Source: a virus
Direction: 5' to 3' (one strand)
DNA length: 64,000 nucleotides
Virus record (IMG/VR): IMGVR_UViG_3300029390_000003
Positions 1,422 to 45,106 of this stretch are shown one piece after another. Made by a program: the position numbers and the translations under genes. Positions within the stretch are counted from its first letter, which is position 1. Each line of letters begins with the position of its first letter. The notes below the pieces were generated by a model. It was not told the origin of the DNA, did not search any database, and worked only from the letters and a program-made list of their open reading frames with translations.

Positions 1422-1494
1422 AAATAGACTCCTTACATTTACTATAAAGAGCCTTGATGTGACACTATAAGTATACCACACCAAAGCTCTGATT

Positions 1495-3173: not shown

Positions 3174-3642
3174 CTTCGTTTACAATATAGATACCGTTGT
3201 CTTTAAGATATTCTATAAATTCTTCGTGTGGCAACTTATCGGCAAGCTCATAAATAGTGTAGTTACTTCTGCCTTTCACCCACTTTGTTTCTTTACGCAA
3301 GCAAGACCATTGATGTACACGAAATTCCTTACAACGCCATTTTAAATGAAAGGCATCTCCGCACAAATCGCAAATCGGTATTTCTACATAAAAGTCACCC
3401 GGATAGCGTTTTCGTCGCCACCACTCCATATCATAGAATACAATACCATAGAATTCAGGATAATCTTTAAATCCATGTTCTCTAAGATAAGCAAAACCCA
3501 ATCCATTGATGGTCCATTCTGGCGACCTTGGAACTGTATATCGAAGCTGCGATTCTGTATGCGAGATACAGGCATTGTTATATTTTCCATCAATGCCCAT
3601 AATGTACCAGTCGGATTTATAATAGCCTATTTGTTTAGTCAC
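3154..3642 (-). CDS. Hypothetical protein with a Cys/His cluster.
   Basis: This 162-aa ORF is tightly packed with its neighbours and carries a CDLCGDAFHLKWRCKEFRVHQWSC cluster. Confidence 0.3.
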   Translation of the reverse strand: MTKQIGYYKSDWYIMGIDGKYNNACISHTESQLRYTVPRSPEWTINGLGFAYLREHGFKDYPEFYGIVFYDMEWWRRKRYPGDFYVEIPICDLCGDAFHLKWRCKEFRVHQWSCLRKETKWVKGRSNYTIYELADKLPHEEFIEYLKDNGIYIVNEGGIELG

Positions 3643-4099
3643 AACTAATCACATCCCCCGTATCATCACCCAACGGCCACGTGCATCCATAAAATGTTCC
3701 CAAATTTTCGATTTTAAAATAGTACCATTTCTTCGTCACGTAGTCATAAATACTGTAGCAAGTGCAGCGGCCATCCGGCCAATGGTTCTTTTTAATAGCG
3801 TCAATATCAAGTTCTAAAAATCGTTTGATTTCGGATAATTTATATGAAGCAAAAATATAATCCCATGGGCCACGCCAATGGATAAACCACATGTGCTTTA
3901 CGAAGTTCGGCCATTCTACAGAAAATCGTTCGACTGGTTTACTTCTGCCAAAATTCTTATATTGAAGAAAATAGTTGCTGATACCGTGTACACCAGTCCA
4001 ATAATGGTCTTTAGTGCAGATGAAATGAGAATAGTTTTCCCATTCTGGATTTTGTATTTCCCAGTGATTCTTTTCGATTGAAAAATCTTTATTTACCAT
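3635..4099 (-). CDS. Hypothetical protein.
   Basis: This 154-aa ORF overlaps the start of the downstream gene, and there is no intergenic gap. Confidence 0.3.
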   Translation of the reverse strand: MVNKDFSIEKNHWEIQNPEWENYSHFICTKDHYWTGVHGISNYFLQYKNFGRSKPVERFSVEWPNFVKHMWFIHWRGPWDYIFASYKLSEIKRFLELDIDAIKKNHWPDGRCTCYSIYDYVTKKWYYFKIENLGTFYGCTWPLGDDTGDVISCD

Positions 4100-4703
4100 T
4101 TACGTTACCGACTTTTAATGATTGGATTGTTATAGATACTTTTCTTTTGTTTAAAAAGATGTCTGAGATATTCAGGCGTTTGATCTGCATAATAAGTGTA
4201 TTCTAATTTGCAGCCATATTTTTTATCAAACTCTATTAGTTCTTCTTCCGTAAGAGTGCCATTCTTAATTTTCTCTAAAAATAGTTTATAGTCTTCTGTG
4301 AATGTACTACAAAATGCAAAGTCACCCATAAGTCACCTCATAAAAGTCTAGTTCTTAAAAAATAAGCTTACGCTGATATTTATTTAAAACTTCCTGAATC
4401 TCATCAACAAAACTTTCAACAGCAGAATCTGTTTTTTCTTTCTGATATTCTTCTACAGAATCTACATCAACGTCAATATTGATTACATCATTGTGGTATG
4501 GCTCTCCAGTCAAATCAATTCCATAGTTGATTTCATCGAACGGAGCCTCATACCAGTTGCCGTTTTCTCTATTAACAACCCCAAAGGTCAATTCGGTATT
4601 TTCATCATAGCCTATTTCATTCAGTTTTTTGATAAGTTCTATAACTTTCATCTCATACACCATCCTTTGATTTTCTCACACGCTCTGCAAATTGCGTCAA
4701 AAG

Positions 4704-5114
4704 TCAACTCTCGTCTGCATCAGAAACAGTTTGAAGTACGCTCTCCGCTTCTTTGCGAGCCAATCGTTGTTTATATTCTTTGTTTGCGATTCGTTCTTGC
4801 TCATGCAATTCAAGTCCTTTCAGCCAGTAAGATGGACATTCATAAATTTTTTCAAGTGTGTTTGCATCGCAAAAGTGTTCTCGATCTCTCTTATTGTAAT
4901 CGTAATATCCAATAAATGACAGACCACAATCGCTTATTACAACGTTGTCTTTTAAAAGAATCGGACGCTCATCCATGACCTTAACCCAACCGAGAAAGTC
5001 TTCGCAAGATTCGGCGCAACTATCTCTTGTTTGCTTTCTATAAGCGCATACTTCTTTATGTAGACATTTACTGCAAATAGCCATTTTTTTCTCACCTCTT
5101 TCTAAAACATACAT
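4704..5114 (-). CDS. Cys-rich hypothetical protein.
   Basis: CSKCLHKEVCAYRKQ...CAESCEDF at the N-terminus suggests zinc binding. Confidence 0.3.
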   Translation of the reverse strand: MYVLERGEKKMAICSKCLHKEVCAYRKQTRDSCAESCEDFLGWVKVMDERPILLKDNVVISDCGLSFIGYYDYNKRDREHFCDANTLEKIYECPSYWLKGLELHEQERIANKEYKQRLARKEAESVLQTVSDADES

Positions 5115-5141
5115 TCTTGAAAATAAACTTGCTTTGGCATA

Positions 5142-5441
5142 TTATTTTTCTTTATCGCAAATTCTGCAATACCGATGAAACGGAGATTCGATAATCTGCC
5201 AAAATATAGGTTTCCACTTGTGTTTATTAAAGATACGGCTGTTCTCCATAATATCAACCGGATAAGAACTAGAATCACATTCAGGACAGTTGTATTTCAA
5301 ATCACAATAATTGGCTGGCTTGAACTCTCCAAGAGAATCTGCATCAACCCAAAACTCGCAACCGCAGCTAGAACATCTAAACTCTACTGAGTATTTTGTT
5401 TTTTCTCTTTCTTTACCATGGACTTCAATTCGTATAGCCAT
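5142..5441 (-). CDS. Small zinc-ribbon protein, paralog 1 of 3.
   Basis: It starts MAIRIEVHGKEREKTKYSVEFRCSSCGC...CPECD. A GAGGTG ribosome-binding site lies upstream of the internal ATG. Confidence 0.45.
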   Translation of the reverse strand: MAIRIEVHGKEREKTKYSVEFRCSSCGCEFWVDADSLGEFKPANYCDLKYNCPECDSSSYPVDIMENSRIFNKHKWKPIFWQIIESPFHRYCRICDKEK

Positions 5442-5449
5442 TTGGCACC

Positions 5450-5683
5450 TCAATCCACAAAAATCTTTTCTCTTGGAACTGTAGATAAACAAGATGAAAC
5501 TTCTGTGTTGCATTCTGGGCAAATCGCCTGTTTAACCGGTGAGTATTCAGTCCAATCAAATTCTTTTGGAATTTTCGTATCTTCTTCATCAGCCCAAAAT
5601 ACGCATCCACATTTACAAAGGAATTTAACGGCATATCTTGTTTTCTTTCGCTCATGTTTGTGTTCAATAATCTTAATCGCCAT
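5450..5683 (-). CDS. Small zinc-ribbon protein, paralog 2 of 3.
   Basis: MAIKIIEHKHERKKTRYAVKFLCKCGC...CPECN has the same architecture as paralog 1. A GGAGGTG ribosome-binding site precedes the ATG at 5683. Confidence 0.45.
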   Translation of the reverse strand: MAIKIIEHKHERKKTRYAVKFLCKCGCVFWADEEDTKIPKEFDWTEYSPVKQAICPECNTEVSSCLSTVPREKIFVD

Positions 5684-5903
5684 CTGGCACCTCCACGGTA
5701 AAAATAGTTTTAGTTGCTTCTTTCCAAGAAATAAACTCAGCCCCAGCAACTTCCGCTCTACATCTATAGCACGCAATCACATTATTCTCAGGAATGTCCA
5801 AATCAGGATTTTCAAAAGAAGCCACTCGAATCTTAGTTGTACAACCGCAATTCTTACATGGAAATACGATTACCGGATTTTTTAAACTATCAGTCTTATG
5901 CAT
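5673..5903 (-). CDS. Small zinc-ribbon protein, paralog 3 of 3.
   Basis: CKNCGCTTKIRV...CYRCR. It is third in the tandem array. Confidence 0.4.
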   Translation of the reverse strand: MHKTDSLKNPVIVFPCKNCGCTTKIRVASFENPDLDIPENNVIACYRCRAEVAGAEFISWKEATKTIFTVEVPDGD

Positions 5904-7509
5904 ATCTACGCCTCAATCCGCAAACACAAACGATGTATTAAAAAAATTCGATCCAATAATCATATTTTCTTCGGACAAAGCGACTTTGATAATCTCATCG
6001 TCAGTATACGTTTCATCATATTCTGCTGTGTCGCAGACTTTGTATATCTCGCCGTCTTTATTTTGGAACAACGTTCCTTTACCAAGTTTTAATGGTTCTG
6101 TTTTCTTTTCTTCTCGAATATGTGCTTTCATGTATTTATTCCTCCCACCCACCCGTAAAATTTACCTTTTACCAGAATGAATATTTCGTTCTAATTGAAG
6201 GTGTTTCTACACTTTTTGCAGGATTTTCCAGCATCGCGGCCTTCGCCGTGATTTCATCGATACTCTTTTGGAAATCCTGTAGCTTCTTCAATTCGCTTTC
6301 GATGTCCAGTTTCACTTCGACATTCTCGATAAACCCCATATCCTCAAGGCATTTGCAGTAGCCAGCAATCTCGTTATAGAAGATGTGGTTGTACTCTTCC
6401 AAAAGCGTATGCCCGTCAAACAGCTTTACTTGCCATGCAATTCCAAATGGAGCTTCTTTCTCGTAATGAGATTCGACAGTGTAATACTTCATACATACCT
6501 CAAATCAGCTTAATACCTTCTGGTTTAACATAATAAACAGAATTATTATACTTAACTACAAGATAACATCCATAAAGATTTTGAATCATCTTTTGAATAT
6601 ACACCTCAGCACCTTTTGGGATATCTTCCTTGTGTAAGGCAAGTGCAGTTTTCCAATCTTCGTCCATGAGATTTTCCAAAGCAACGCCTTTGCGCCCAGT
6701 GTATCTATCGTACATTATGTATTCTCCTTACTTAATGCCGTACTTAGCTTTGACCTTCTTCAAAGTCTCACTCTTGTTGTGATAGTCATCGCGAGCTGCC
6801 TGATAAGAAGTCATCTTCTCTGCAAGGACACGCTTTGCTTCGGCCTCTGCAACGTCAGCCTCTGCCAGCTCCTTGTTCAAAACAAAGCCGCTCGTCTTGA
6901 TACCATCAATAAAACCATCCATGCGATCCTTCTTGACACTCTTCTCGCCCATTGCACCAGTATCAGTGTTAAACATCTTCACAACAGAATCTTCGACACC
7001 AGCGATATTGTAAACGTAAAAATATTTAGCCATAATTTAATTCTCCTCGATCTTTTCAAACTTATAAACTGTATTCTCAGTCTGGACAATAACATTTTTC
7101 TTGTCACTTGAGATGTAATAATCAACAACACAAGATGTGTGCATTGCGCCCGGATAATCATGTCCATCATTATCTTTGATGTATCGGAAACCAGCTGATT
7201 CTCCGATCTTCAGATGCACGATTTTCATTGTCATGCCAATCCAAGTTAGATACCAGCCGTCGTTTCGAGTGCGGCCAGTTACCAGTGAGATTGCGTTCGT
7301 CAGCTCGTACTGATTTTCCATAATCTCATCATCAATCGGATTTTTATGAGTCAATGCAGCATTCGGCATCTTTTCAATTGTGCGTGTCAAAAGAAGCATG
7401 AAATGCATAAACGCATCATGCTTATCCTGCTCAGCATCGATTTCTGCGTACTTGCCCATCCGATACAGAAGCTCGGACGTATCGATTGTCTTTCCCATAA
7501 ACACCTCGA

Positions 7510-30294: not shown

Positions 30295-31313
30295 TTAATT
30301 CTCCTAACACAGTTTTCAATCAATGCCTTAAATTTTTCAGGATTATCAGTCGGGGCTTCCTTTTCATCCAGAATCCCTTTATCATCTACTACAGCATACA
30401 CACTTACGCCATCGACAAATCGATTAGCGAGAACCATAAGCTCACTAAGCTGAACGTCTTTATCAAATACAAAACAAATATCAACGCAAAGACGTGTTAA
30501 AATTTCAATTTGATTCTGTGAAACCTTCTTACCGCCAGTCGCCACACAGTTGTAGACATCCATGTTCCACATCTGCATGACAGACTTTTCAGCTTCACCA
30601 ACATATACCAGACCTTCATTCTTAATGTACGGCTCTGTCTTATACAGGCCATACAGAATACGGTTTCTGGCACACGGCTCAAGATATAGATACTTTAATT
30701 CACCTTCAGGCGGCTTGCCAAAATATCTTCCCTTTACACCAACCAGAGTACCAATTTCATCTCTGATTGGAATCGTGATTCTATTTGTCAGTTCATCAAA
30801 GCCAATCTCAAACTCCTGCTGCGTCTCATAAGATATCCCATCGTCAGCAAAAATCTGGTTCACATAAGGTTTGTAATAACCGAGGATGGCTTCGGAGATT
30901 GGGACTATCGGACGGTCATCCTCGTGTTCTTCACCTTCACTTTGCATGGCGATGAGTTCTTTTAGAATCAACATACTTTTAGGAAGGTCTTCCTCGAAGT
31001 TGTGATAGTAGTCAAGTCCAACCCATTCGCAGATTTGCTTAATAGCTTTTGGGAAAGACAGTTCCAGAAAGAACTGGACGACAGAAATCAAATCATAACT
31101 GGTCTTTCCATTGGCAATATCTCGTGTGTAATCTACCGCAGTAAGATTTTCATTCTCGTAGATACAGAGTGCCGTTCTATTGTCACCATCTGGATTTGCA
31201 CACTGGTAATAACCAGTCTTGTGACTGATATGATGACAACCAAGTTCCTCCAGAATCGGTTCAATCTGCTGTTCTTCAAGAATGTAATTTTTCAGATCTG
31301 CGATATTTACCAT
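30291..31313 (-). CDS. Toprim-domain DNA primase (DnaG-like).
   Basis: It has a Toprim Glu (VGEAEKSV) and an FVFDKD acidic motif. It sits directly upstream of the helicase. Confidence 0.55.
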   Translation of the reverse strand: MVNIADLKNYILEEQQIEPILEELGCHHISHKTGYYQCANPDGDNRTALCIYENENLTAVDYTRDIANGKTSYDLISVVQFFLELSFPKAIKQICEWVGLDYYHNFEEDLPKSMLILKELIAMQSEGEEHEDDRPIVPISEAILGYYKPYVNQIFADDGISYETQQEFEIGFDELTNRITIPIRDEIGTLVGVKGRYFGKPPEGELKYLYLEPCARNRILYGLYKTEPYIKNEGLVYVGEAEKSVMQMWNMDVYNCVATGGKKVSQNQIEILTRLCVDICFVFDKDVQLSELMVLANRFVDGVSVYAVVDDKGILDEKEAPTDNPEKFKALIENCVRRIK

Positions 31314-31322
31314 TGTAGTTCC

Positions 31323-32846
31323 TTACTTTCTGGTGCAGACACCGACCTCTCTCCAAATATTCTGATTCAAATTCACTTCAAACATGATTTTCTTTTTCTC
31401 ACCAAAGCGGTTCTTATCGATGTTTCCAACGTAATACCGCTTATCTGGATTTAGCCGATGGGCACAGTCACCGCCCCACTCAGGGTCATGAGAGATGTAT
31501 TGATACTTCGCGAACTTATCTTTTGGAATCTCCTTGAACAGAACCATCGTCCAAGCAACATGCTTAATCATTTTTGACTCAGCAATGTTGTTTGAATTCA
31601 GCTCATCAGGAAGATACTCATGAGCGTTTTCGGCCAACTGAATACTACCATAGATAAAGATCTTCAGGTTTTTCGCAGTCTCTTCAAGCTCTGTGGCTGT
31701 GACTTTAAACGCTGCCCATTCACCAATAGATGCAATATCGTTCTTTAAAGTATCATAGAACACATACTTAACTCCCTGCGTGAGAGCTGCCTTCTGAATT
31801 TCAAATCGCAGGGACTTATCACTATAATCGGCAGAAACATCTTTTGCGATAATCAAGCCTTGTGATTCGTTCTCAATCCACTGGCAAACATCAAGCACAT
31901 TGCGGTATTCTTCGCTTTCTTCGTAGACACGAGCGGTAAACTCATCAATGCTTTCTATGTATTCTCCATCTTCATTTTGCTTTCGGAAGATGAAATTTCC
32001 GTTTGCATCCCGGTACATTCCAAGGGTAATTTCTCGCTCGTCCTTATGGAAACGATGACCATGCAACTCTTGAAACTCAGGATTATTGATGGCGGTGACC
32101 AGTAAGCAATATCGGACTGACTCAAGATCCATCTCGTTCAGCAGCAGGAGTGCTTTTTGCTTTTGAACCAATGTGACGTATGCAACAATCGCCATCATGT
32201 ATCTAGTCTTACCAGCATTAGATGGCATACCATTGAACATCACGGTGCCCAGCTTCAATCCTCGGAACAAATCGTTCATGATAGGATACTGGAACGGCAA
32301 GCCCATATCAGGAACACTCAAACGTTCATTAACCATCGGCAGCAGACCGTTATTCAAAATCTCAGCATCATCGTTTGTAATGATAACCGTATTGATCTTG
32401 TCGGCCTTGCCACGAATCAGTTTATAAATGTCCTGAGCACCAAACATTTCAAACTGCCGGTGCTTCAAGATTCCTTCAATGTTGAATCCGTTTCTCTGAT
32501 ACTCACGAAGTAGCGAATATTTCTTCAGGATATTGAAATATCCCTTGATATCATCGTCATTCGCAAGATTCATGTAGTATTCAATGGTTGACCAGCCCTT
32601 CAGCCGCTTATATTGGGACAATCTGGACTCGTCTTCAGCCATAAACGTTAAAACAGACGTTTTATTAAATTCTTGAGTCCGAGTTTCATAAATAATCAAC
32701 GCTGCATCGTAAAAAAATTTTGTTGCTTCATCGGCAAAATCGTACTTGCTCTTGACATAATGCCCATACTCGACCAAATAGTCAGGATGCTTGTAAATTG
32801 CGCCAACAAATAGAATTTCGTTCGGGATATTTGAAATGAGTTCCAC
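31323..32846 (-). CDS. DnaB-like replicative helicase.
   Basis: It has a DnaB-like N-terminal domain, the Walker A motif GMPSNAGKT, and a RecA-fold C-terminal domain. Confidence 0.7.
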   Translation of the reverse strand: MELISNIPNEILFVGAIYKHPDYLVEYGHYVKSKYDFADEATKFFYDAALIIYETRTQEFNKTSVLTFMAEDESRLSQYKRLKGWSTIEYYMNLANDDDIKGYFNILKKYSLLREYQRNGFNIEGILKHRQFEMFGAQDIYKLIRGKADKINTVIITNDDAEILNNGLLPMVNERLSVPDMGLPFQYPIMNDLFRGLKLGTVMFNGMPSNAGKTRYMMAIVAYVTLVQKQKALLLLNEMDLESVRYCLLVTAINNPEFQELHGHRFHKDEREITLGMYRDANGNFIFRKQNEDGEYIESIDEFTARVYEESEEYRNVLDVCQWIENESQGLIIAKDVSADYSDKSLRFEIQKAALTQGVKYVFYDTLKNDIASIGEWAAFKVTATELEETAKNLKIFIYGSIQLAENAHEYLPDELNSNNIAESKMIKHVAWTMVLFKEIPKDKFAKYQYISHDPEWGGDCAHRLNPDKRYYVGNIDKNRFGEKKKIMFEVNLNQNIWREVGVCTRK

Positions 32847-32868
32847 TCATCCACCTCCCTTTATACTT

Positions 32869-33633
32869 TTAATACTGAATTTTGTTGTTTGGATACAGTT
32901 CATTGAACATATCAAAAACTTTTCTCAGGCCAAGACCTTCCTTACTGGGCACCCAAATTTTCTTCGGGTTCCAATTCTTCCATACACCGTCGTATTCAGG
33001 TGCTATCGCATCATACGCAGGGTTATCCACCCACTGACCACCATTCATACTGTACTCGTACTTCTTAGGATCAAGTTCGGCAAGCGTCAAGAATCTGTTA
33101 TCATTTTTGTTGTGAGCTCCAAATCCGCAGAATGTGCATCCGGTGCGATCACATCCAGTACAACACAGTGGAGCTTCTGGCTTATCACTCGTGGGAACGA
33201 TATCGCCATAAACATCAGCGATTTGAATTCCTGACTGTTTGATGAAAGCGAGTACATCTTGCTCAGTCCAAAAACTCATAGGCTGACTAGACGGCGACTT
33301 GCTATCAAAGGCATTACACCCATGTCGAATCCACGCCTGTTTGCGAACACGGCTTTCATCTGTCAAAGTTCCAATAATTGGTTTCCGCTTAGTTGCCCTT
33401 GCGTACTTCTTCATTGGACTTTTCTTCATTACTGAGCAACAGTAATGAGAAATTGCGAATGGAAGTTCTTGTGTCGCTGGAAGCCATTTCTCTTTGTTGA
33501 ACATCGATTTCGTTCCAGCTTGCATTTCAGCTCCCGGTTCATTTCCAAGTAGAATCGTTCGTCTATTTCCCTGAAATACTCCTGTTTTATCATAAAGCCA
33601 CGGGTTGCTAAAGACACCTCCCGGACTGTTCAT
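32869..33633 (-). CDS. PAPS-reductase-family protein, C-terminal segment (out of frame with the N-terminal segment).
   Basis: GTLTDESRVRKQ (the RxES..R motif that follows a PP-loop) and the Cys cluster CCTGCDRTGCTFCGF are present. This frame is open all the way back to the (CT)n repeat. Confidence 0.65.
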   Translation of the reverse strand: MNSPGGVFSNPWLYDKTGVFQGNRRTILLGNEPGAEMQAGTKSMFNKEKWLPATQELPFAISHYCCSVMKKSPMKKYARATKRKPIIGTLTDESRVRKQAWIRHGCNAFDSKSPSSQPMSFWTEQDVLAFIKQSGIQIADVYGDIVPTSDKPEAPLCCTGCDRTGCTFCGFGAHNKNDNRFLTLAELDPKKYEYSMNGGQWVDNPAYDAIAPEYDGVWKNWNPKKIWVPSKEGLGLRKVFDMFNELYPNNKIQY

Positions 33634-33674
33634 CCTTAAACCCAGAAGTTCCTGTCTTTTCCTGAGAGTTGTTC

Positions 33675-34091
33675 TTAACTCTCTCTCTCTCTCTCTCTCA
33701 TGGTGGCTGCGCCGCTATTTCTGATTCGTCTAGCGTAATAAATCGCTTCTGCCACTTCTTTAGAGATAAGAGGATAACCATATGTAGAGACAACATCACT
33801 AAATCCCATCTTGGGATAAACAAAAACCGCATCCGCATCTCGTGCAAACTTCTGGATAGACGAGTATTCCAACCCCGTGTTACTGAACACAAGCGGAACA
33901 TCTGGAAACAGCTGTTTCGTCAGATGAGCAAGTACAGTAGAATCCTTACCACCAGAAAAACTGACATACACGCCACCGTCGTAGTGCATATACCATTCTT
34001 GGATGCGATTTTGAGTGATCTGAATCTTTCGCTCAAGAGGAAGTGCTTGAAGCTCCTTCAATCTTTGAGCGTCATGAACTGTATTATCCAT
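33675..34091 (-). CDS. PAPS-reductase-family protein, N-terminal PP-loop segment. It ends inside the (CT)10 repeat.
   Basis: VSFSGGKDSTVLAHL...VFSNTGLEY matches the PP-loop ATP-pyrophosphatase pattern of the PAPS reductase family. The ORF terminates as ...MRERERES* inside the dinucleotide repeat. Confidence 0.7.
   Translation of the reverse strand: MDNTVHDAQRLKELQALPLERKIQITQNRIQEWYMHYDGGVYVSFSGGKDSTVLAHLTKQLFPDVPLVFSNTGLEYSSIQKFARDADAVFVYPKMGFSDVVSTYGYPLISKEVAEAIYYARRIRNSGAATMRERERES
33679..33699. repeat. (CT)10 dinucleotide microsatellite inside the PAPS-reductase-like gene.
   Basis: ctctctctctctctctctctc on the + strand. It is read as RERERE in the N-terminal ORF. Confidence 0.95.
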
Positions 34092-34105
34092 TTACCAACC
34101 TCTTT

Positions 34106-34798
34106 TTATATTTCATCGAGAATTGCATTTATATCAATTTCATTCTCGTTTTTACTCTGTTTCGGTGCTGTTTTCATCCGTTTCAGTACCGTTTCAGTCA
34201 GATTATCCTTCGTTTTTCCTTCGCTTTCGCTGCGAATCGAAGCTAGTCTTTCTTTTCGTTCAAGATAACTGGGATATTGAGCCAACAAAACAGCCAAGTC
34301 GTAATTCCATCGCTGACTCATATCACAACCCTTTGCTTCTTTCTCGGCAATTACTTTATCCAATCGGGGTTTCGCTAGAACCCACATATCGTAGAGTTCT
34401 AGCGGAGGAATAGAACCTCTATATTTGTAATAATTACCGGAAATTAACTGCGTAAGTTTCGAGTAGAAGCTACCCGGAACAACCGCCGGGGCGTATATAT
34501 CTCGAATATGGTCGAAAAGAATCTTTTTCTCTTCCTGTTTGATATGTGCAAGCTCACGATTGTGGTCTTGCTCTCTCTTTTTGGAAAGAAGATCATCGAC
34601 CTTTTTATCCGTAGTGTCATTCACTTTGTCAAAAAATGCCCTTAGCAGGTCATCTGTCCAAGGGCGTTTTTGATTTTTCTTTTTTTCTACAAAACAATCC
34701 TTATGATAAAAACCAGTCTTGTCGTAGAAAAACGTGCTACGGTCTCGCTCGATGAAAATGTTCTTCCCGCAAATCTTGCATTTACGGGTTAATTCCAT
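34106..34798 (-). CDS. Hypothetical protein with an N-terminal zinc finger.
   Basis: CKICGKN...HKDCF at the N-terminus, followed by a Lys/Glu-rich central region. Confidence 0.3.
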   Translation of the reverse strand: MELTRKCKICGKNIFIERDRSTFFYDKTGFYHKDCFVEKKKNQKRPWTDDLLRAFFDKVNDTTDKKVDDLLSKKREQDHNRELAHIKQEEKKILFDHIRDIYAPAVVPGSFYSKLTQLISGNYYKYRGSIPPLELYDMWVLAKPRLDKVIAEKEAKGCDMSQRWNYDLAVLLAQYPSYLERKERLASIRSESEGKTKDNLTETVLKRMKTAPKQSKNENEIDINAILDEI

Positions 34799-35946
34799 TA
34801 AGCCAGTTCCTTCTCCATGACTGCGGCAACCTTCTTCAGTTCCTCAATATCAGTCATAGAACGGAATGCGGTAGACAGGCCAGCCGCCTTAACAGCCTTC
34901 TGTGCGGCACTCTTCTTCATAGGAGAAGCGGAAGCAATCAGGTCATTCAGCTTTGCCTTGATGTCATCCATAGAAGGCTCTTTACTATCAGAACTCTTAT
35001 CTGCCGGAACATCACCCGGCTCATCGTTTTCGATACCAAGGTCACGCATACTCAGCTTAACCTCAGTCTTAACAGCATCGTTTAAGCCGTTTTTGATGAC
35101 GTTCTCCCGATTCTTTGCGCTACTAGAGATAATATCCTGATACTCAAGCAGGGTCAGATCCTCAACGACCTCACCGCCCTTATGCATACCGGTACGATCC
35201 TTATCGAAGAAAGCGAGCTGCTGACCATCCTGAAAATACAGGCGGAACTCAGTATCAACGTTGTACTCCTGACCAGCAAACCCATCAGGAATCTTACGAC
35301 CAGTAGGCTCACTTACGATAGAACCATTCACAACCTTAGTATGCTTCTCGTCCTTCTCTCGGCAAACAACGATGTAGTTCACACCAGATGCATTCAGATC
35401 CAAAATCAGAGACTGACCCTTGAAGTTCAGGGTATTGAAATCCTTGAGCTCCATGCCAGCACCCTCAATCTTAACTGCCTTTTCATCACCGGTCAGACCC
35501 TGAGATGCAGCCTTAACCTTGGCACGCTTCTGCGAGAAGGCGGTGAGGCCCTGGGTAGCAGTCATCTTGAGGATGGAAGCGGAGTCAACAACCAGAGCGT
35601 CTGCACGGAACGGCTTGCCATCTGCATCCAGATAAACATCCCCATTCTCATCTTCAATGTCCTCATCGTTGGTAACCATCTTGATATAATCCTGAACTTC
35701 TGCCAGAGACTGGGTGTAAACAATCAGCAGATTATCAGGATTCACACCATTGGCTTCCAGCTCCTCGGTGTAATTATCAATAGAACCATTCTCGGTATCC
35801 AAATACAGAACACGGAACGGCTTACCGTCTGCATTCTTCAGATAGCACAGCTGCATAGCAGTACGAGACTTACCAGTTCCCTGTTCACCATAAATCAGCA
35901 TATGAAGCTTCTTACGAACAGCAGATGCCTTACGAATCATAGCCAT
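34798..35946 (-). CDS. RecA-fold ATPase, AAA_24/Sak4-like.
   Basis: A Walker A motif (IYGEQGTGKS) is followed by VLYLDTEN, a pattern typical of phage AAA_24 / Sak4 annealing ATPases. An SSB-like gene follows it. Confidence 0.5.
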   Translation of the reverse strand: MAMIRKASAVRKKLHMLIYGEQGTGKSRTAMQLCYLKNADGKPFRVLYLDTENGSIDNYTEELEANGVNPDNLLIVYTQSLAEVQDYIKMVTNDEDIEDENGDVYLDADGKPFRADALVVDSASILKMTATQGLTAFSQKRAKVKAASQGLTGDEKAVKIEGAGMELKDFNTLNFKGQSLILDLNASGVNYIVVCREKDEKHTKVVNGSIVSEPTGRKIPDGFAGQEYNVDTEFRLYFQDGQQLAFFDKDRTGMHKGGEVVEDLTLLEYQDIISSSAKNRENVIKNGLNDAVKTEVKLSMRDLGIENDEPGDVPADKSSDSKEPSMDDIKAKLNDLIASASPMKKSAAQKAVKAAGLSTAFRSMTDIEELKKVAAVMEKELA

Positions 35947-36035
35947 ATATGTAAATTCCTCCGTTTTATCAAAATTATTTATCGCACCTACGATATTTAT
36001 TTTGGCGTAAATACGATAAATCTTTTCTTTTATAA

Positions 36036-36053
36036 GTATCCTGTGTTACTTAG
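36036..36053 (-). promoter_or_regulatory. 18-bp motif, copy d, about 90 nt upstream of the Sak4-like ATPase.
   Basis: GTATCCTGTGTTACTTAG. Confidence 0.5.
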
Positions 36054-36066
36054 CTAAGGCTAAAAA

Positions 36067-37170
36067 TTACAGTCCCCAGTCATCTTCTTCCTCGTTTACA
36101 GGAGTTGCAGTAGACTTGTTAGAACCACCCCACCAAGAAGTGTCGTTCTCAGCAGCCTTGCCGTCGAAGTCCTTCTTAGCCTGAGCGTTGGCAGCAATCT
36201 TTGCCCGCGCCTCAGAGATATTATCCTCAGTATAAGTTGGCTCCGCATCCTTGTCGCCGGGATTCGGATCAAAAGAATCAGGATTAACACCCTCGATATA
36301 CAACTTACGAACTGCCGGAGTGCTCTGACGCTTCATCTTATTAGGACCACCCCAGATATTCTCAGTCTCAACTTCCTCAACCTTCTGCTGATTGACGATA
36401 GGACCAAAACACTCGAAGCTGGTATAGGGCTTCAAACGCTTACGAATAGAATCAGCCAGAACCTTATTCTGAGCGTTTGCCTTATAATCAATGAAGAATT
36501 CTGCGTCCTCGATGGTGTTGTAGTTCACAATCTTGGCATCGACAACTACTTCATCGTCCTCATCGCTCTTACGGCAACCAGTGTACACAATAGTCTGAGT
36601 GAACAGAGCCAGCTCTTCAAAGCCCTCCGTATCAAAGTCGATTTCCTTAGAGCTCAGAGAAACCTGAGTAGGAACAAAGCGAATCTGGTGCTTGCCGTTG
36701 TAAGTGCTGTACTCGATGTTACCACGGACATACACGTTATCACCGTCATGCAGGTTATCGGAAATCTCCTTGGCTGCATCAAAGTCAGTCAGAGTCTTGT
36801 TATCATTGACGACCTTACCAGACTCATTCGTCTTCTTGGTAACACCGACCTTAACGCCAATCATGTCGTAGCCTTCCGGTGCAACATAAGTCAAACGATC
36901 CTTCCAAGCGACTTCCTTCTTATCCTTTTCGATGCCCTTGTCCTTATCGGCACGGCGGAAGAAGTAAACCTTATCACGAGGCATACCAGCCAGATCAACA
37001 TAGAAAGTGTTTTCATTGGAAGTCTGAACGCCAAAACTCAGGACACGGCGCATAGCACCACTCTTAGTCTCCTTCTCGTTATAGAAGTTACTACGCTGGG
37101 TGCCGGTGACCTTACCAGCCATCTCAAAAGAACCACGGGTCTGAGGAAGATTAAAAATTCTATCTGCCAT
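36067..37170 (-). CDS. Putative single-strand DNA-binding protein (atypical).
   Basis: It has a Gly/Asn-rich tail ending in acidic EEEDDWGL, as in SSB C-termini. Its position next to a Sak4-like ATPase fits. There is no strong motif. Confidence 0.35.
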   Translation of the reverse strand: MADRIFNLPQTRGSFEMAGKVTGTQRSNFYNEKETKSGAMRRVLSFGVQTSNENTFYVDLAGMPRDKVYFFRRADKDKGIEKDKKEVAWKDRLTYVAPEGYDMIGVKVGVTKKTNESGKVVNDNKTLTDFDAAKEISDNLHDGDNVYVRGNIEYSTYNGKHQIRFVPTQVSLSSKEIDFDTEGFEELALFTQTIVYTGCRKSDEDDEVVVDAKIVNYNTIEDAEFFIDYKANAQNKVLADSIRKRLKPYTSFECFGPIVNQQKVEEVETENIWGGPNKMKRQSTPAVRKLYIEGVNPDSFDPNPGDKDAEPTYTEDNISEARAKIAANAQAKKDFDGKAAENDTSWWGGSNKSTATPVNEEEDDWGL

Positions 37171-38744: not shown

Positions 38745-40221
38745 TTATCCTCTTTGCTTTTCTGGAAAATGCTTCTTAGTTACTGCAACGCAAAAGCTAT
38801 CAATTTCTGACCCCCAAATGGCAGTACCTTCACCATATGTGCTTTGAAATACTAACGGAAAGCCGCCGATCCCATCGAAGAGGCTACCAAGAGTAGGATT
38901 CTCACCGATATACGGTTTCATCTTCTGAAAAATCCAATACCATTGCGGTAATGCGATTGAATTGCCGAGTGCCTTATAACGAACTGCGTCAGAAGTTTTA
39001 TGCTTCTTTTCGTTCTCATCAATCCAGTCACCGATATCTGTCCATCCATCAGGGAACCCCTGAAGCCGTTCATCCTCCAAAGGAGTCAAACGGCGAACAA
39101 TCCATCGTAGATTCTTCGTTTCTTTTTCTGTAATCAGGTCAGTAGCGTCCTTGTAATCACGAGATTTCATCGTACTAGCCTGTTCACTTTCCTTGTATTC
39201 ACCAATGCGTTGCATCGCAAAGGCTTTCTTCTCAATGACCAGTGGCATATTATTGCCACCAGTTCCCCACTGAGCAGTACAAGTCGGACTTGTATCACTC
39301 AGCTGAGTGTATCGAGCGTCTTGACTGTGGCTCTCAAACACCACCGGCGAAATCTTTTGTTTTAAATTATGTAAAGAGGGATTTTCTGCCAAGCAAATCA
39401 GCGTCTGGTCTTGTAACGTAGAAATCGTTGCGCTCAATTCAGTTTGAACCAGAGCGCCTTTACCGCCACCTTCACATCCAGAACGGATTTTTAGAGTGTA
39501 GGCTGCAGGTTCTGTGCATCGAGTCGAAGTCTCTCGATGGTCTGACTCCAATACTCGTCCAATTCCTTCTCTTCCAGACCTTCTTGTTCCTTCACTTTCT
39601 GCACCACCTGTGACAGAGTTCCTGGATTCCACCATTCGATCATATCCAGCAACGCTTGCTTCAGGAGTTCGGGCAAAGGTTTTCCACGCCGGGATGCTCT
39701 CACAAGAATCCCCTGACATGCTCGTGCGCTCAAATAGAATTTCTGAGGCACGTTGTCCTCCAAAATCCATGACAAGCGCGATTCTCTGGCGACGCTGGGC
39801 GACTCCCCAGTATTTAGCGTCGAACAATCTCCATGCAATAGACCATCCATTACCGGAAATCGCTCCAGATTTTGCCCACTTTCCGTTCTTCCCTGAAGGT
39901 CGAGGAATTGAAACGTCTGGCTCGACAATGCGTGCAAATCTTTCCAACACACATCTGAAGTCTTCACCTTTGCTTGAGCTGAAAGCTCCTCTGACATTTT
40001 CCCAGATTGCGAATTTTGGATATTCTCCATTAGTGGCCTCCCTCATTTCTGTAATCACACGAATCATTTCAAGGAACAATCCAGAGCGTTCACCAGCCAA
40101 ACCTTCACGTTTACCGGCCTGACTCAAATCTTGGCATGGACTGCCTCCTGTGATACAGGAAACCGGTTCAATCTGCCACCCATGAAGTTGTGTAATATCT
40201 CCGTAATGCTTCAGTTTTCAT
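38745..40221 (-). CDS. DNA (cytosine-5)-methyltransferase with circularly permuted motif order.
   Basis: From N to C the motifs run GGSPCQ (IV), ENV (VI), QRRQR (VIII), a roughly 200-aa variable region, RRLTPLEDERLQGFPDGWT and GNSIALP (IX/X), then FDGIGGF (I) and SEID (II) at the very C-terminus. The ATG at 40221 is 1 nt out of frame (A4 run). A CTG 8 nt downstream of AGGAGG is in frame. Confidence 0.75.
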
Positions 40222-40347: not shown

Positions 40348-40424
40348 CCTATCGGGCTGGTGGGACAGGAGAGATTCGAACTCCCGACCAAGCGGTTATG
40401 AGCCGCCAGCTCTGACCAACTGAG
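40348..40424 (-). tRNA. tRNA-Met (anticodon CAT); could be a lysidine-modified tRNA-Ile instead.
   Basis: The cloverleaf was folded by hand. The acceptor stem is GGGATAG/CTGTCCC, the D-stem GCTC/GAGC, the anticodon loop CTCATAA and the T-loop TTCGAAT. CCA is encoded. Confidence 0.8.
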
Positions 40425-40661
40425 CTACTATCCCATGCAAACGCCGACTTTCGTCGGCGCGATGCCAGCGGAGGAATCGAACCTCATCTCTCGGTGTTTC
40501 CGAGCGCTTTTACCATTAAGCTATCCAGCCGTATACCTCAGAATTTAATTCTCACTATCCAAGCTACGTCGCGTTCCAATATGATCACTCTTGGCAACCA
40601 TGTCGTAACATATAGGTTCCTTTCGGCTCTGAGTAACCGGTGCAGCGTAAGGGGCTGCGTG

Positions 40662-40737
40662 TGGAGCGACTGACGGGGGACGATCCCGCAACATTCAGAT
40701 TGGAAATCTGACGCTCTGCCAATTGAACTACAGTCGC
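40662..40737 (-). tRNA. tRNA-Gly (TCC).
   Basis: The acceptor stem is GCGACTG/CAGTCGC, the anticodon stem TCAGA/TCTGA and the loop TTTCCAA. The T-loop is atypical. CCA is encoded. Confidence 0.7.
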
Positions 40738-41094
40738 ATAAGAACCAACCTAGCAACTGGCATCACTAGGCTGGGATGCTCGGCTTGCAAAGGCACGCTG
40801 CACTCTTTCGAGCGAGCCGAGAATAACGTACATGGATAATTTCGTTAGCCCCTTTCTGGGTGGTATCTTGCACAGGCGCGGCCGGATCTGACCGCTAAAG
40901 ATCCTACCCATACAAGATTGGAGCAGCGAAAGGTAGTCGAAACCTCATCCTCAGCTTGGAAGGCTGATGTACTAGCCGTTGTACGACCGCTGCATGAAAA
41001 CCCAGCTTACAAAGCACTACTGCACCATCACTGGCGAGCTGGGAATAATAGTGGTCAAAGGAGTTCAACCATGAACAACAACGATTCATGACCG

Positions 41095-41176
<82 letters not shown>

Positions 41177-41181
41177 ATAAA

Positions 41182-41252
41182 TTGCGCCAACAGGGGTCGA
41201 ACCTGTGATGGAGGAGTCAAAGTCCTCTGCCTTACCGCTTGGCGATGGCGCA
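41182..41252 (-). tRNA. tRNA-Gln (TTG).
   Basis: It has a U1:A72 acceptor pair as in bacterial tRNA-Gln. The anticodon stem is GAGGA/TCCTC, the loop CTTTGAC, and the T-arm ACAGG-TTCGACC-CCTGT. Confidence 0.8.
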
Positions 41253-41320
41253 TCATATACCCAGCTTACTGGAGAAGCATCCTACTGCCTTACTGCTAAG
41301 GAGCTGGGAATAATAGGAAT

Positions 41321-41396
41321 TGGTCTGAGCGACAAGATTTGAACTTGCGGTCCCCTGTTCCCAAAACAGGTGCGATGCCAACTTCGCTACGCCCAG
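41321..41396 (-). tRNA. tRNA-Pro (TGG).
   Basis: It has a C1:G72 pair as in bacterial tRNA-Pro. The anticodon stem is CCTGT/ACAGG and the loop TTTGGGA. CCA is encoded. Confidence 0.8.
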
Positions 41397-41403
41397 ATAT
41401 AAA

Positions 41404-41486
41404 TGCGCCCGGCGGGACTTGAACCCGCACGCCATCTCTGGCAGAAGATCTTAAGTCTCCTGTGTCTGCGATTCCACCACGGGCGC
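41404..41486 (-). tRNA. tRNA-Leu (TAA), type II.
   Basis: The acceptor stem is GCGCCCG/CGGGCGC and the anticodon loop CTTAAGA. The variable arm forms a hairpin (GCC-AGAGAT-GGC). The T-arm is GCGGG-TTCAAGT-CCCGC. Confidence 0.75.
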
Positions 41487-41686
41487 ATATAAAAGAAGAT
41501 CAGAAACAGCCAACCATTCGTTTTACATTCTAGTTTTCTGGCGAACCGAAGAGTATTTATCCGATAGCTAGTCGGCTTACACCTTATTTCTCTTCTTGTC
41601 TGGCTTGACGTCCTTTACCGGTATGACGTCTTTCCGGTCGCCAATGTACGGCCAATCCCCGAACGAGCTAGAACAACTGATCTTCA

Positions 41687-41771
41687 TGGTAGGGATAATC
41701 GGATTTGAACCGATACGTCTTTCGACACTTGAGTTTGAATCAAGCGTGGCTGCCAATTTCACCATATCCCC
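41687..41771 (-). tRNA. tRNA-Leu (CAA), type II.
   Basis: The acceptor stem is GGGGATA/TATCCCT and the anticodon loop TTCAAAC. The variable arm forms a hairpin. The T-arm is ATCGG-TTCAAAT-CCGAT. CCA is encoded. Confidence 0.8.
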
Positions 41772-41888: not shown

Positions 41889-44108
41889 TTAGCTCTTCTG
41901 CTGACTTGCGTAGAACTCATTCCGCAGCTGAATAATACCCTTCTTGCAGAAAGACTCTTGATCTTTCTCTCGTTGTTCACGCATCCAACCATAGAACAGG
42001 TTATCCTCGGCAGTAAACAACTTTGCGGTATTTTCATAATAGCCACGTTTTTGAACGCTCTGCATGACACCACGCAAGAACTTCCAGTGCTTATAATACG
42101 GAAGCTTCAGCTTAAACATGAAATTATTGCTGTCTCGCAAAACAAAGCCTTCAACGTGTTCAAAACCATGATGCAGATAGTTCTCGTTCATGACTTCTTC
42201 GTACCAAGGATAGAATTCACTCCAGTTCTCAAAGGTTTTAACCTTCTCCTTAATCTGCAGATGACACTTCTCGGCTACACGCTTCAAATCATCATAATCC
42301 ATTACACTGAAATTCATATCATTTGCAATAATATCCAGCAAAACAATGTGCGGTTTCTTATATTCGATGATATGTGCATCATTCACAGGATCAATCACCT
42401 CGAAGATGATGGAGCCATTCTCTTTTGCAACTTCTTTCAGATTCTTACGATCTTCATCAGAAGTCGTATCCATGAGAATCTTTCGGAACATATCTGCAAA
42501 AGGCCCATCAGGAGTGGATTTACTTGCAATGAACAGACCATCCTGTTCTGCATCATACGAAATGATACCAAGAAATCCGTTCTCTTTTAGATATGCAGTC
42601 ACCGGGAACTTCAAAGTGTTCTGTAGGTTTCCAATTCTCGTTTCATTCCGCTCATCAACCGCAAAGAACTTATCATAGCTTCGAGCTACAATCTTATTCG
42701 TCTTTGTGTTAATGAACAACCCTCTTGCTTTGGTAGAAACCTCATCCCAGTGCTTCTTATAAAATGCTTCACGAGAGAAGTTGAAAGAAGAAATATCTCC
42801 GAATCGCTTCTCAAACACATATTTGCTTTGACGCATCTTACTAACAAGTTCTGCGTTATCGAACTCAGTTTTCATTTCAACGGCAGTTTCAGTCTTTGGC
42901 TCCTCTTTTCGGAATACATCATTCTTGGTTTCTACGCATTTGATAGGCTGACCGTGTTCAAGCTCCACACAACGAAGATATCCACCAAACTCGATTTTGC
43001 CTTCAAGATTGTAGCACCGATGACCCATATCAATAGGAACATCCTGTACATTTCGATGGCCGAAGATCTGAATATAGCTATCCGGCATCGACTTTTCCCA
43101 AGACTCAGCCACGGTCAGTATATCAGGATAGCGGCCTACGCCTTTAATCATCTGATCCGCAGACACGAACGGAAGAAAATAAGGAAGATAGCTCAGACCA
43201 CCGTGACTTACGAAATACCGCTTACCATCATACTCAAAGTAGACACACTGGCCGACTCTGGAATAGATCTTACGAGCAGTGTTCTTGTCAATACCGGCTT
43301 TAAAGAGCTGCGGACGAGTGTAGTTTGCAAACTCTTCACTTTGAACCGGTTTATCACGCCCCCACTTGTTCAGCCAATGCTCGTGGTTCCCTTCCAAAAG
43401 GATCACATTCTTGCGGTTGTTATTTACAACATCACACAAGAACTTGAATACCTCAACGTTTTCGATGCCACGATCGAGATAATCACCAACGAAGATATAA
43501 AGCTCGTCGTCCTTCATCTCACCAAGGTATTCACTCAAGCAGGTATAGCAGCCATGAATATCACCGATGATATGTATCTTTTTCCACTGGTTAAAGTCAT
43601 TCGGGCAGTAGTTCAAATCGGACATCACATCCGTAGTAGAAGGAAGAACTGTCACGCCAGAAGGAACTTTTTGAGTAGCAAACCGAGCGTACATCTTATC
43701 AATAGCCGCTTCAGGAACTCGCTTTAGCCATTCTCTCTGAGCGTTTCTTCGTTTGCATTCCTCGATCGGAAGGTCCGTCATATCAATAACATACATCCGA
43801 TAACGATACTGTTTTGCAAGATTCTTATAACAATTCATTTCGACCGTCTTGGAATTCGTTGCATCAATCACAGTAAACTCGCCATGGCTCATCCGCACCT
43901 CAAGCAGTTTGAAAAGCATCTCCCATACAACATCATCATTCTGCTGAGAAATCTCCATCTGCCCATCAGGTGTTTCCTGTGCGCTCTGGCACATAAGGCG
44001 AAGTGTATCAACACTCAATACGTACTGCTCAAGATTATGCTCTTTAATATAGGTGGACTTCCCGCAACCGGGTGCTCCACGGAACAGTAAAAGTGTTCTC
44101 ATCTGCAT
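41889..44108 (-). CDS. Pnkp-like RNA end-healing and sealing enzyme: P-loop polynucleotide kinase, calcineurin-type phosphatase, and a C-terminal nucleotidyltransferase (ligase-like) domain.
   Basis: The N-terminus has Walker A (FRGAPGCGKST). The middle has the binuclear phosphoesterase motifs IIGDIHGCY, GDYLDRG and GNHE. The C-terminal 350 aa carry a KxNG lysine motif (AYLKENGFLGII) like ligase/adenylyltransferase motif I. The domain order matches bacterial Pnkp. Confidence 0.7.
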   Translation of the reverse strand: MQMRTLLLFRGAPGCGKSTYIKEHNLEQYVLSVDTLRLMCQSAQETPDGQMEISQQNDDVVWEMLFKLLEVRMSHGEFTVIDATNSKTVEMNCYKNLAKQYRYRMYVIDMTDLPIEECKRRNAQREWLKRVPEAAIDKMYARFATQKVPSGVTVLPSTTDVMSDLNYCPNDFNQWKKIHIIGDIHGCYTCLSEYLGEMKDDELYIFVGDYLDRGIENVEVFKFLCDVVNNNRKNVILLEGNHEHWLNKWGRDKPVQSEEFANYTRPQLFKAGIDKNTARKIYSRVGQCVYFEYDGKRYFVSHGGLSYLPYFLPFVSADQMIKGVGRYPDILTVAESWEKSMPDSYIQIFGHRNVQDVPIDMGHRCYNLEGKIEFGGYLRCVELEHGQPIKCVETKNDVFRKEEPKTETAVEMKTEFDNAELVSKMRQSKYVFEKRFGDISSFNFSREAFYKKHWDEVSTKARGLFINTKTNKIVARSYDKFFAVDERNETRIGNLQNTLKFPVTAYLKENGFLGIISYDAEQDGLFIASKSTPDGPFADMFRKILMDTTSDEDRKNLKEVAKENGSIIFEVIDPVNDAHIIEYKKPHIVLLDIIANDMNFSVMDYDDLKRVAEKCHLQIKEKVKTFENWSEFYPWYEEVMNENYLHHGFEHVEGFVLRDSNNFMFKLKLPYYKHWKFLRGVMQSVQKRGYYENTAKLFTAEDNLFYGWMREQREKDQESFCKKGIIQLRNEFYASQQKS

Positions 44109-44152: not shown

Positions 44153-44180
44153 AAATGAAGGGGCCGAAGCCCCCTGTTTT
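44153..44180 (-). terminator. Bidirectional rho-independent terminator after the 44180..45106 gene.
   Basis: On the minus strand, the stop codon TAA is followed by aaaCAGGGGGCttcgGCCCCttcatttt. The + strand reads GGGGCcgaaGCCCCctgttttt. Confidence 0.7.
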
Positions 44181-45106
44181 TAATTTTCATGGAAATATTC
44201 AACCCAACCTTTATATCCTTGCCGGAAACTAAGATAGGCAACTTTACTGCACTTTCTTCCGATAATGTCCGCAAGAGGACCTTTACCATTTCCGAAACTA
44301 AGTTCTGCAAGATTAAATTTTGGATGAGTTTTACAGTAGTTATAAACCTTGATATACTCACAATTTCTGGCTAAATATCTTTGATCTAAGGTTTTTGAAT
44401 GATGCCTTTTTTCGAGGATATCGTTCAACCTCGAAAAATAGACATGAATTGAAATTATAGACGTCTTTGGATCACTGTTTACACCGGGTTTATCCTTCGT
44501 TTTGCGTAGGATATAATCGCCATTCATGACATAAAATGTTCTATAACCGCTCTTATTGGGGGCATCATACTGTTTCATCTCGTAACATTGCTTGATAATA
44601 TCCATTAACCTTGCGTCAACATCAGTCTTATCAAGAACGGTATTAGATTCAAAATCCACATCGTTAATTGTTAGATTAGAAATCTCATCGGAAGTAAGAC
44701 CAATCCAGTACAAAACAGCAATTACGTTCATACGAATCTGATATGGCTCTTCGTACTTATTTAAGAAGTCAACAAATTCGTCAACCGACGCAAAATAACT
44801 GTCATTGTACATATCATCTGCGCTTACATCGCTCTCTGAAAAGTCAGCCAGATCATACATGCTTGTTTCGTTTTCACTTTTGATGTAGCCTGTGATTATT
44901 GACTTCACATTTTTAAACGAACGACTCGAATTCACCCAATTATATTTGGCAAACATCTTTACGAAATCATCTTTTGTGAAGTCAAACAACTCATACCCAC
45001 GCTCGGCCTCGTAATCCATGACGTGACGCATCGTCGATGCAACAAACTCACCGCTTCTATCAGAATACTTTTCGGCAAAAGCTTTGATTTTTTCTTCAGT
45101 AAGCAT
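44180..45106 (-). CDS. Hypothetical protein.
   Basis: This 308-aa ORF has a clean stop followed by a terminator hairpin. No confident domain was found. Confidence 0.3.
   Translation of the reverse strand: MLTEEKIKAFAEKYSDRSGEFVASTMRHVMDYEAERGYELFDFTKDDFVKMFAKYNWVNSSRSFKNVKSIITGYIKSENETSMYDLADFSESDVSADDMYNDSYFASVDEFVDFLNKYEEPYQIRMNVIAVLYWIGLTSDEISNLTINDVDFESNTVLDKTDVDARLMDIIKQCYEMKQYDAPNKSGYRTFYVMNGDYILRKTKDKPGVNSDPKTSIISIHVYFSRLNDILEKRHHSKTLDQRYLARNCEYIKVYNYCKTHPKFNLAELSFGNGKGPLADIIGRKCSKVAYLSFRQGYKGWVEYFHEN

Follow-up and report, generated by a model that had tools for sequence, protein, structure and literature searches.

A dinucleotide repeat as a probable on/off switch of a PAPS-reductase-like gene in a large human-gut phage

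Introduction

On/off switching driven by the length of a simple repeat is a textbook strategy of host-adapted bacteria. In phages, to our knowledge, it has been documented essentially only for the polyG tracts in the receptor-binding protein genes of Campylobacter phages. Here we describe a candidate of another kind, found in a stretch of 64,000 nucleotides (nt) from the IMG/VR virus record IMGVR_UViG_3300029390_000003 (hereafter the window, meaning the whole of that stretch). The element is an uncultured large (~135-kb) phage of the human gut, and in its replication-recombination module a gene of the PAPS-reductase family is cut into two open reading frames (ORFs) by an in-gene (AG)10 tract, which reads (CT)10 on the strand as presented. 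We put the probability at roughly 80% that the length of the repeat truly turns one gene on and off, heritably and reversibly, and that this is a simple-sequence-repeat contingency locus.

The closest mechanistic analogue is mmyCImod, the Type III methyltransferase gene of Mycoplasma mycoides subsp. capri, in which (AG)12 meets a TAA just past the tract and the clone is inactive, whereas (AG)10 is in frame and active; related Mycoplasma mod genes have tracts of other lengths (PMC3498834). The two cases share an (AG)n tract inside the gene of a nucleic-acid-modifying enzyme, putative in our case, with a length that differs between relatives. They differ in that MmyCI mod is a bacterial chromosomal methyltransferase of a restriction-modification system, with on/off activity shown by experiment, whereas the gene described here is a phage PP-loop PAPS-reductase-like gene with no restriction partner and is known from sequence alone. 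The closest phage precedent is found in Fletchervirus, Campylobacter phages whose receptor-binding protein genes carry hypermutable polyG tracts (Sorensen et al. 2021, as cited in PMC11959909). Both are phage-borne simple repeats that create heritable on/off diversity in a phage gene. In Fletchervirus, however, the repeat is of mononucleotide G, the genes are structural and serve host recognition, and the host itself uses polyG switching, whereas here a dinucleotide repeat lies in an enzyme gene of the replication module and the host is probably one of the gut Clostridia. The phasevarion mod genes of Haemophilus, Neisseria and Helicobacter also resemble our locus, in that repeat-length frameshifts toggle a DNA-modifying enzyme; they differ in being bacterial, in carrying mostly tetra- or pentanucleotide or homopolymer repeats, and in acting on host gene regulation or restriction.

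For the protein itself, a precedent for a counter-defence role comes from a Vibrio phage, in which a PAPS-domain/Dam fusion, p0018, and its neighbouring gene allowed the phage that received them to escape host Dnd (Piel et al., bioRxiv 10.1101/2021.05.05.442762; cited in PMC13551039). Like our gene product, p0018 is a phage-encoded PAPS-reductase-domain protein. It differs in being a methylase fusion with no repeat reported, and the Vibrio phage matches of our search were just 26–29% identical, p0018 itself not being among the sequences aligned. In full-text literature searches, neither this locus nor any repeat switch on a phage PAPS reductase was found to have been described before. The mechanism is familiar; what is unusual is its carrier, a gut phage, and its target, a replication-module enzyme and not a tail protein.

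The locus offers natural population data, with on and off alleles on identical backgrounds, for a non-tail gene of a common human-gut phage. Phage "PAPS reductases" are abundant but have no assigned function, and most often they are listed under sulfur-metabolism auxiliary genes; a natural on/off pair is a means of learning what they do. In addition, the case shows that a "pseudogene" split at a repeat in a viral metagenome assembly can be genuine and worth studying.

One gene divided by a repeat

All genes hereabouts lie on the minus strand, which at the locus reads GCC ACC ATG (AG)10 TT AAG AAC AAC TCT C. The tract occupies 33679–33698 (minus strand); if the G of the ATG before it is counted, the perfect alternating run is 21 nt long (33679–33699), reported by Tandem Repeats Finder as CT x10.5 over the same positions. 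It is the sole di- to heptanucleotide repeat in the 64-kb window, where the repeat search otherwise gave only a run of T8, and even a 16-nt CT run has an expected count of 0.00 in 100 dinucleotide-preserving shuffles. We regard the tract as hypermutable; the on alleles described below encode M(RE)k at this site. The tract's 3' end, GAGAGAG, can pair with CUCUC 10 nt downstream in a small hairpin (window 33660–33685, minus strand).

Upstream of and through the tract runs the N-terminal part of the gene (33675..34091, minus strand), an ORF of 138 amino acids (aa) that carries the PP-loop motif SGGKDS, ends in ATMRERERES and occurs as the exact same protein on many independent contigs. The original prediction, which was made by reading the letters of the window, described this ORF, its motif and its MRERERES end correctly; it placed that end inside the repeat, whereas the stop codon (TAA, 33677–33675) lies directly past the tract and outside it. 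In the -1 frame, 269 codons run without interruption from the TTA at 33678 down to a stop at 32869–32871; an open frame had been claimed for the stretch from the repeat down to the methionine of the second ORF. This open frame begins LRTTLRKRQELLGLRMNSPGG and contains TLTDESRVRKQAW and CCTGCDRTGCTFCGF. Its first 15 codons, LRTTLRKRQELLGLR (33634..33678, minus strand), lie between the tract and the called methionine, and the last 254 make up the called C-terminal ORF (32869..33633, minus strand), which holds the remainder of the domain, the CC...CxxC cysteines and a conserved C-terminal extension.

The two ORFs divide one PAPS_reduct domain (PF01507) between them. In Pfam searches, profile positions 3–46 fell in the N part and 67–170 in the C part, and the fused protein scored 58.7 bits against a cut-off of 22.5, compared with 33.1 and 28.6 for the separate halves; one continuous domain is what the original prediction had proposed to look for. 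When the window sequence was edited, removal of one AG unit gave a single ORF of 406 aa and addition of two units gave one of 409 aa. The central claim of the prediction, that a PAPS-reductase-family gene is cut in two at an in-gene (CT)10, is borne out by the tract, the ORFs and the single split domain, and its expectation that (CT)9 would fuse the ORFs to about 400 aa agrees with the 406-aa ORF, the exact protein of which is present in public assemblies.

Repeat length varies on identical backgrounds

Evidence that the repeat length changes in nature comes first from the window's own haplotype, for which we made a blind test. The fusions expected for 3, 6, 9, 12 and 15 repeat units (n) were predicted and then looked up as exact sequences among ~15 billion proteins. 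Proteins of 404 aa (n = 6), 406 aa (n = 9) and 408 aa (n = 12) were found, on 6, 6 and 2 contigs, respectively, and the n = 3 and n = 15 fusions were absent from that collection. Off products with the window's N-terminal sequence were also present: the 138-aa protein (n = 10) on 27 contigs and in 65 index blocks, the 136-aa protein (n = 7) on 5 contigs and the 161-aa protein (n = 11) on 4, so that the in-frame share within the haplotype is 14/50 by contig counts. Four carriers of the 406-aa protein (L137–L140) read (AG)9TT and differ from the window at 0 of the 1,203 other gene positions. In one of them, L138, 0 of 3,000 nt upstream differ as well, and one repeat unit is the sole difference from the window over 4.2 kb. 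Among the samples that contain the phage, ERR13962114 has the (AG)9 on allele, and ERZ28636259 (SAMN05971706) matches the window exactly over the 6.4 kb compared. The suggestion of a slipped-strand on/off switch in which (CT)9 restores the gene is supported by these alleles, which are otherwise identical across the gene.

Other haplotypes vary in the same way. Ten multi-member groups of contigs had zero substitutions in 1.2 kb of coding flanks, and half of them differed in n: 10 in L006 and L047 and 11 in L038; 7 in L013 and 9 in L016; 10 (off) in L024 and 8 (on) in L025; 9 in L030 and L035, 12 in L033 and 8 (on) in L052; and 7 (off) in L034 and 8 (on) in L039. Three of these five groups hold both on and off members. 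A further haplotype is that of P0001, a 98%-identical full-length relative, in whose cluster an off N-terminal ORF of 137 aa (n = 9) was seen on 230 contigs, whereas the in-frame n = 8 protein of 405 aa that shares its N-terminal sequence was seen on 8. A haplotype can thus be dominated by off states.

A census of relatives used as its probe a conserved pattern of 24 nt just upstream of the tract, so that sampling was blind to tract length and frame. It yielded 38 contigs (23 from IMG/VR and 15 from metagenomes), whereas the same flank pattern had zero matches in GTDB genomes, and hence no cultured host came from that scan. Tract lengths were n = 4 (1 contig), 5 (5), 7 (5), 8 (4), 9 (4), 10 (9), 11 (1), 12 (4), 13 (1), 14 (2) and 15 (2), and the tract was followed by one of three variants, T, TT (as in the window) or A. 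Compared with the commonest relatives, the window allele has both another tract length and an extra T after the tract, a correction to the original prediction. In-frame alleles encode products of 398–408 aa, which vary only in the number of Arg-Glu pairs at the tract, and out-of-frame alleles encode products of 136–161 aa. Eleven of the 38 contigs were in frame, and 12 and 15 fell in the two shifted frames (chi-square p = 0.71 against a uniform distribution).

One relative differs in another manner. L056 has (AG)4 and is out of frame at the tract, and a 1-nt deletion 33 nt downstream restores the frame (locus 388–470), such that ten codons are read in the other frame, as SKNNSQEKTR instead of VRTTLRKRPE. 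From this compensating deletion we argue that it is the DNA frame that counts and that the protein may tolerate change here, with the reservation that L056 is a single short (2-kb) contig and should not be over-read.

Off alleles stay intact

In all loci with a complete gene, whatever their frame state, the post-tract frame is open for 261–271 codons to the normal stop. Of about 50 loci only L043, on a low-coverage contig of 2.1 kb, departs from this pattern; its N part has a second frameshift, and it may be a real pseudogene or an error. The ratio of nonsynonymous to synonymous polymorphism (pN/pS), calculated from 23 distinct alleles, was 0.030 in the N-terminal and 0.095 in the C-terminal portion of the gene. 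For the whole gene it was 0.078 overall, 0.080 in 105 off-off pairs (pS 0.355) and 0.10 in on-on pairs. A decaying pseudogene is ruled out by the open post-tract frames together with the off-off value.

The junction is conserved as well. Between the tract and the window's methionine, lineages differ at many synonymous positions of the 15 codons LRTTLRKRQELLGLR but keep the encoded protein sequence, and this indicates that the selected product is the fused protein, translated straight through the tract. The start methionine of the 254-aa ORF, which had been taken as that ORF's beginning, is a lineage-specific change from ACG to ATG. Most relatives have ACG (Thr) here, and in those with ACG gene callers place the start of the second ORF 36 codons further on. 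A conserved start codon is thus lacking in the C part.

Proposed switch and its strength

Our proposal is that both ORFs are one gene interrupted by an (AG)n microsatellite, and that slipped-strand mispairing, as the DNA is replicated, would add units to the tract or remove them. In-frame lengths would merely add Arg-Glu pairs and yield the full enzyme. Other lengths would stop translation at the tract or 22 codons past it, leaving a fragment of 136–161 aa without the cysteine cluster, presumably an effectively null allele. Because the change is reversible, a phage population could hold a heritable mix of on and off genomes. The window would be an off genome, with (AG)10 then TT, and loss of one unit or gain of two would turn it on. 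The features of contingency genes are present at the locus, namely a perfect repeat within the coding frame, variation of n on near-identical genomes, an alternation between full-length and truncated product, and off alleles that are not decaying.

Several points weigh against this proposal. The in-frame share of about one third is what neutral drift of the tract length would give, and an adaptive benefit is consequently not demonstrated. The contigs, which come from ENA, Logan, JGI and IMG/VR, overlap in part and are not independent samples, and all tract lengths were taken from consensus assemblies. In some studies and haplotypes, moreover, the consensus n is constant (for example, ten loci with n = 10, three with n = 9 and three with n = 4), from which it follows that switching may be slower than in classical bacterial contingency loci.

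Alternative explanations

The explanation that survives best beside a switch is that the tract is a mutational hotspot with no adaptive role, having arisen by chance in an Arg-Glu-rich linker, and that off alleles are mildly deleterious or neutral, being made and then reverted or purged, with no bet-hedging. The uniform frame classes (11/12/15) fit such a hotspot, as does an in-frame share of ~28–29% in both the census and the window haplotype, and so does the excess of the off product in the P0001 haplotype (137 aa on 230 contigs, far above the 405 aa on 8). Two observations speak the other way. The tract is near-perfect and often long across a clade with pS of ~0.3, although synonymous interruptions would be expected if mutability were disfavoured. 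Off alleles are also frequent, and found in many samples, while the gene is under strong purifying selection, a combination that alternating selection fits better than simple mutational load. We therefore hold a hotspot without adaptive role to be unlikely.

A second alternative is recoding, in which off alleles would make the full-length enzyme through transcriptional slippage on (AG)n or through ribosomal frameshifting and the frame of the DNA would be of little consequence. Slippage by two bases is conceivable in principle if the repeat is long enough for a shifted RNA-DNA hybrid to pair again, and in the window the C frame is indeed the -1 frame of the N frame. Nevertheless, the two shifted classes are about equal (12 and 15), and a shift in a single direction would not suit every allele. 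A slippery heptamer is absent, the 161 nt around the site have no Rfam match and are folded no more stably than shuffled sequence (z = -1.3), and in one frame class a stop codon stands directly past the tract. The compensating deletion of L056 would be needless were recoding efficient. We consider recoding as the main explanation very improbable, although some leakiness through transcriptional slippage on the repeat may occur.

Repeats can be miscalled, and the original prediction had itself named a repeat-induced assembly error as an alternative, in which the frameshift would be a sequencing or assembly error and the true sequence would be in frame. We reject it as hardly credible. Independent assemblies (SPAdes, MEGAHIT, JGI and Logan) of different samples gave the identical (AG)10TT allele on at least 24 contigs, and in 65 index blocks, and the other lengths recur as discrete alleles, each on several contigs. 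A tract of 20–30 nt is shorter than reads and than the larger assembly k-mers.

Least credible of all is a natural split into two polypeptides that assemble into an active enzyme, another alternative raised with the prediction: both ORFs are intact and gene callers label each a PAPS reductase, but the C part lacks a conserved start codon, an AAGGA motif abuts the window's ATG with zero spacing, the codons from the tract to that methionine are conserved as coding sequence, the off N-fragments vary in length and C-terminal tail between alleles, and the more distant homologues are all single ORFs.

Homologues at ≤74% identity, which fall outside the repeat-bearing clade, lack the repeat. Judged from this distribution, the repeat is a recent addition to the gene.

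Protein family and putative role

In the switch that we favour, the gene product, as predicted from its sequence, is a PP-loop enzyme of ~405 aa, probably with an iron-sulfur cluster. An AlphaFold2 model of P0001, built with 69 homologues, had a mean predicted local distance difference test score (pLDDT) of 84.8. Residues 121–195 form a low-confidence insertion, and the tract-coded residues are 132–134 of P0001, in a block (131–140) with a mean pLDDT of 57. In the model the repeat thus lies at an apparently tolerant site, inside a poorly conserved, low-confidence insertion. The best Foldseek matches were CysH PAPS reductases and APS reductases (E = 2e-6, target template modelling (TM) score 0.55–0.60), followed by TtuA, LarE and FAD synthase, and a sequence search of the PDB gave marginal PP-loop matches only. 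Invariant among the 69 homologues are SGGKDS and the cysteines C214, C215, C307, C315 and C318, which we take to resemble the CC...CxxC iron-sulfur ligands of APS reductases and DndC. Membership of the PAPS reductase superfamily (PF01507) rests on a score above the cut-off, the invariant SGGKDS and a fold like that of solved members.

Narrower assignments fared less well. Assimilatory CysH was rejected, with 25.5 bits against a cut-off of 154 for the NCBIfam CysH model and no ECGLH, the C-terminal catalytic motif of CysH, in the sequences. PAPS reductase genes have been seen as sulfur-metabolism auxiliaries (bioRxiv 10.64898/2026.02.18.706556), a view that the failed CysH test does not support for this protein. 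DndC, SspD and BrxP belong to the same superfamily, with a PP-loop and with cysteines of the CC...CxxC type that are invariant in our family, and phosphorothioation systems of these kinds occur in gut Bacillota (PMC12914056). The PADLOC models for them, however, match the PP-loop stretch only (BrxP at 26–79, SspD at 43–86 and DndC at 20–57), that is, residues 20–86 altogether, and among the neighbours examined at the locus no gene for a DndD/SspC/BrxC-type ATPase, DndE or a cysteine desulfurase is adjacent. The DndC-like character given in the original description is therefore not established, nor is membership of BrxP, and on its sequence we assign the protein to the PAPS-reductase superfamily and to nothing narrower.

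A role on DNA or in counter-defence is suggested by the location in the replication-recombination module and, by analogy, by the Vibrio phage precedent. The usefulness of switching could then lie in toggling a DNA-modification or counter-defence activity that is a gain on some hosts and a cost on others, and adaptive bet-hedging of this sort is plausible but unproven. A more specific version holds that this widespread gut phage uses the dinucleotide-repeat switch to toggle a DndC/SspD-like sulfur- or adenylate-transferring enzyme, for modification of its own DNA or for counter-defence; the phage would thus hedge its bets, since the mark would be needed against the defences of some hosts and be the target of those of others. 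We regard this version as doubtful; if true, it would be a viral counterpart of bacterial phase-variable modification enzymes.

Genome context

The gene sits among replication and recombination functions, as had been noted from its nearness to Sak4 and a single-stranded DNA-binding protein (SSB) gene; a 230-aa ORF intervenes. Downstream, at a distance of 22 nt, is a DnaB-like replicative helicase gene of the replication module (31323..32846, minus strand). Upstream, 14 nt from the start of the PAPS-reductase-like gene, is the 230-aa ORF, which has no family assignment (34106..34798, minus strand), followed by a Sak4-like AAA_24 ATPase gene (34798..35946, minus strand) and a YorF-type SSB-like gene (36067..37170). 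Imperfect tandem repeats of 11 and 21 nt lie at 34147–34227, near the 3' end of the 230-aa ORF. Further neighbours are a primase and a RecJ-like exonuclease, and farther out are a DnaE-type DNA polymerase, an exonuclease V/Dda-like helicase, a DNA ligase and NrdD.

This neighbourhood is mosaic. A 3.2-kb block that contains the Sak4-like gene, the 230-aa ORF and the PAPS-reductase-like gene is identical among contigs L001–L005 and L007, while the SSB-like and helicase genes in its flanks show up to about 10% divergence per 200 nt (locus coordinates 1–6417; window about 30675–37091). Such an identical block between diverged flanks suggests recent recombinational spread of one off allele.

Related IMG/VR contigs are 120–138 kb long and come from human-gut data. 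Megablast against 50,697 GenBank phage records found no close DNA relative of the locus, and tblastn found relatives at ≤41% identity only. The DNA polymerase is ~30–34% identical to polymerases of Bacillota phages, and a profile scan of GTDB placed homologues of the enzyme (35–57% identity, all single ORFs) mostly in metagenome-assembled genomes of Oscillospiraceae, Lachnospiraceae, Ruminococcus and other Clostridia. On such sequence affinities, the host is likely a member of the Clostridia. Some carrier contigs are 240–470 kb long, compared with ~135 kb for the viral contigs, and may reflect lysogeny or mis-joined scaffolds.

The window also encodes a DNA methyltransferase, a kinase-phosphatase-RNA ligase, two integrase-like genes and eight tRNA genes. 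The DNA methyltransferase gene (460 aa, 38745–40127) has matches of the orphan-methylase type and lies ~5 kb from the switch; the phage therefore has at least one other DNA-modification function. The integrase-like genes, at 264–1484 and 44180–45106, occur alongside the full replication module. The tRNA genes (Met, Gly x2, Leu x3, Gln and Pro) form a cluster at 40358–41771, and adjoining it is a gene of 739 aa (41889–44108) with matches to polynucleotide kinase, phosphatase and RNA ligase, an arrangement like that of tRNA repair.

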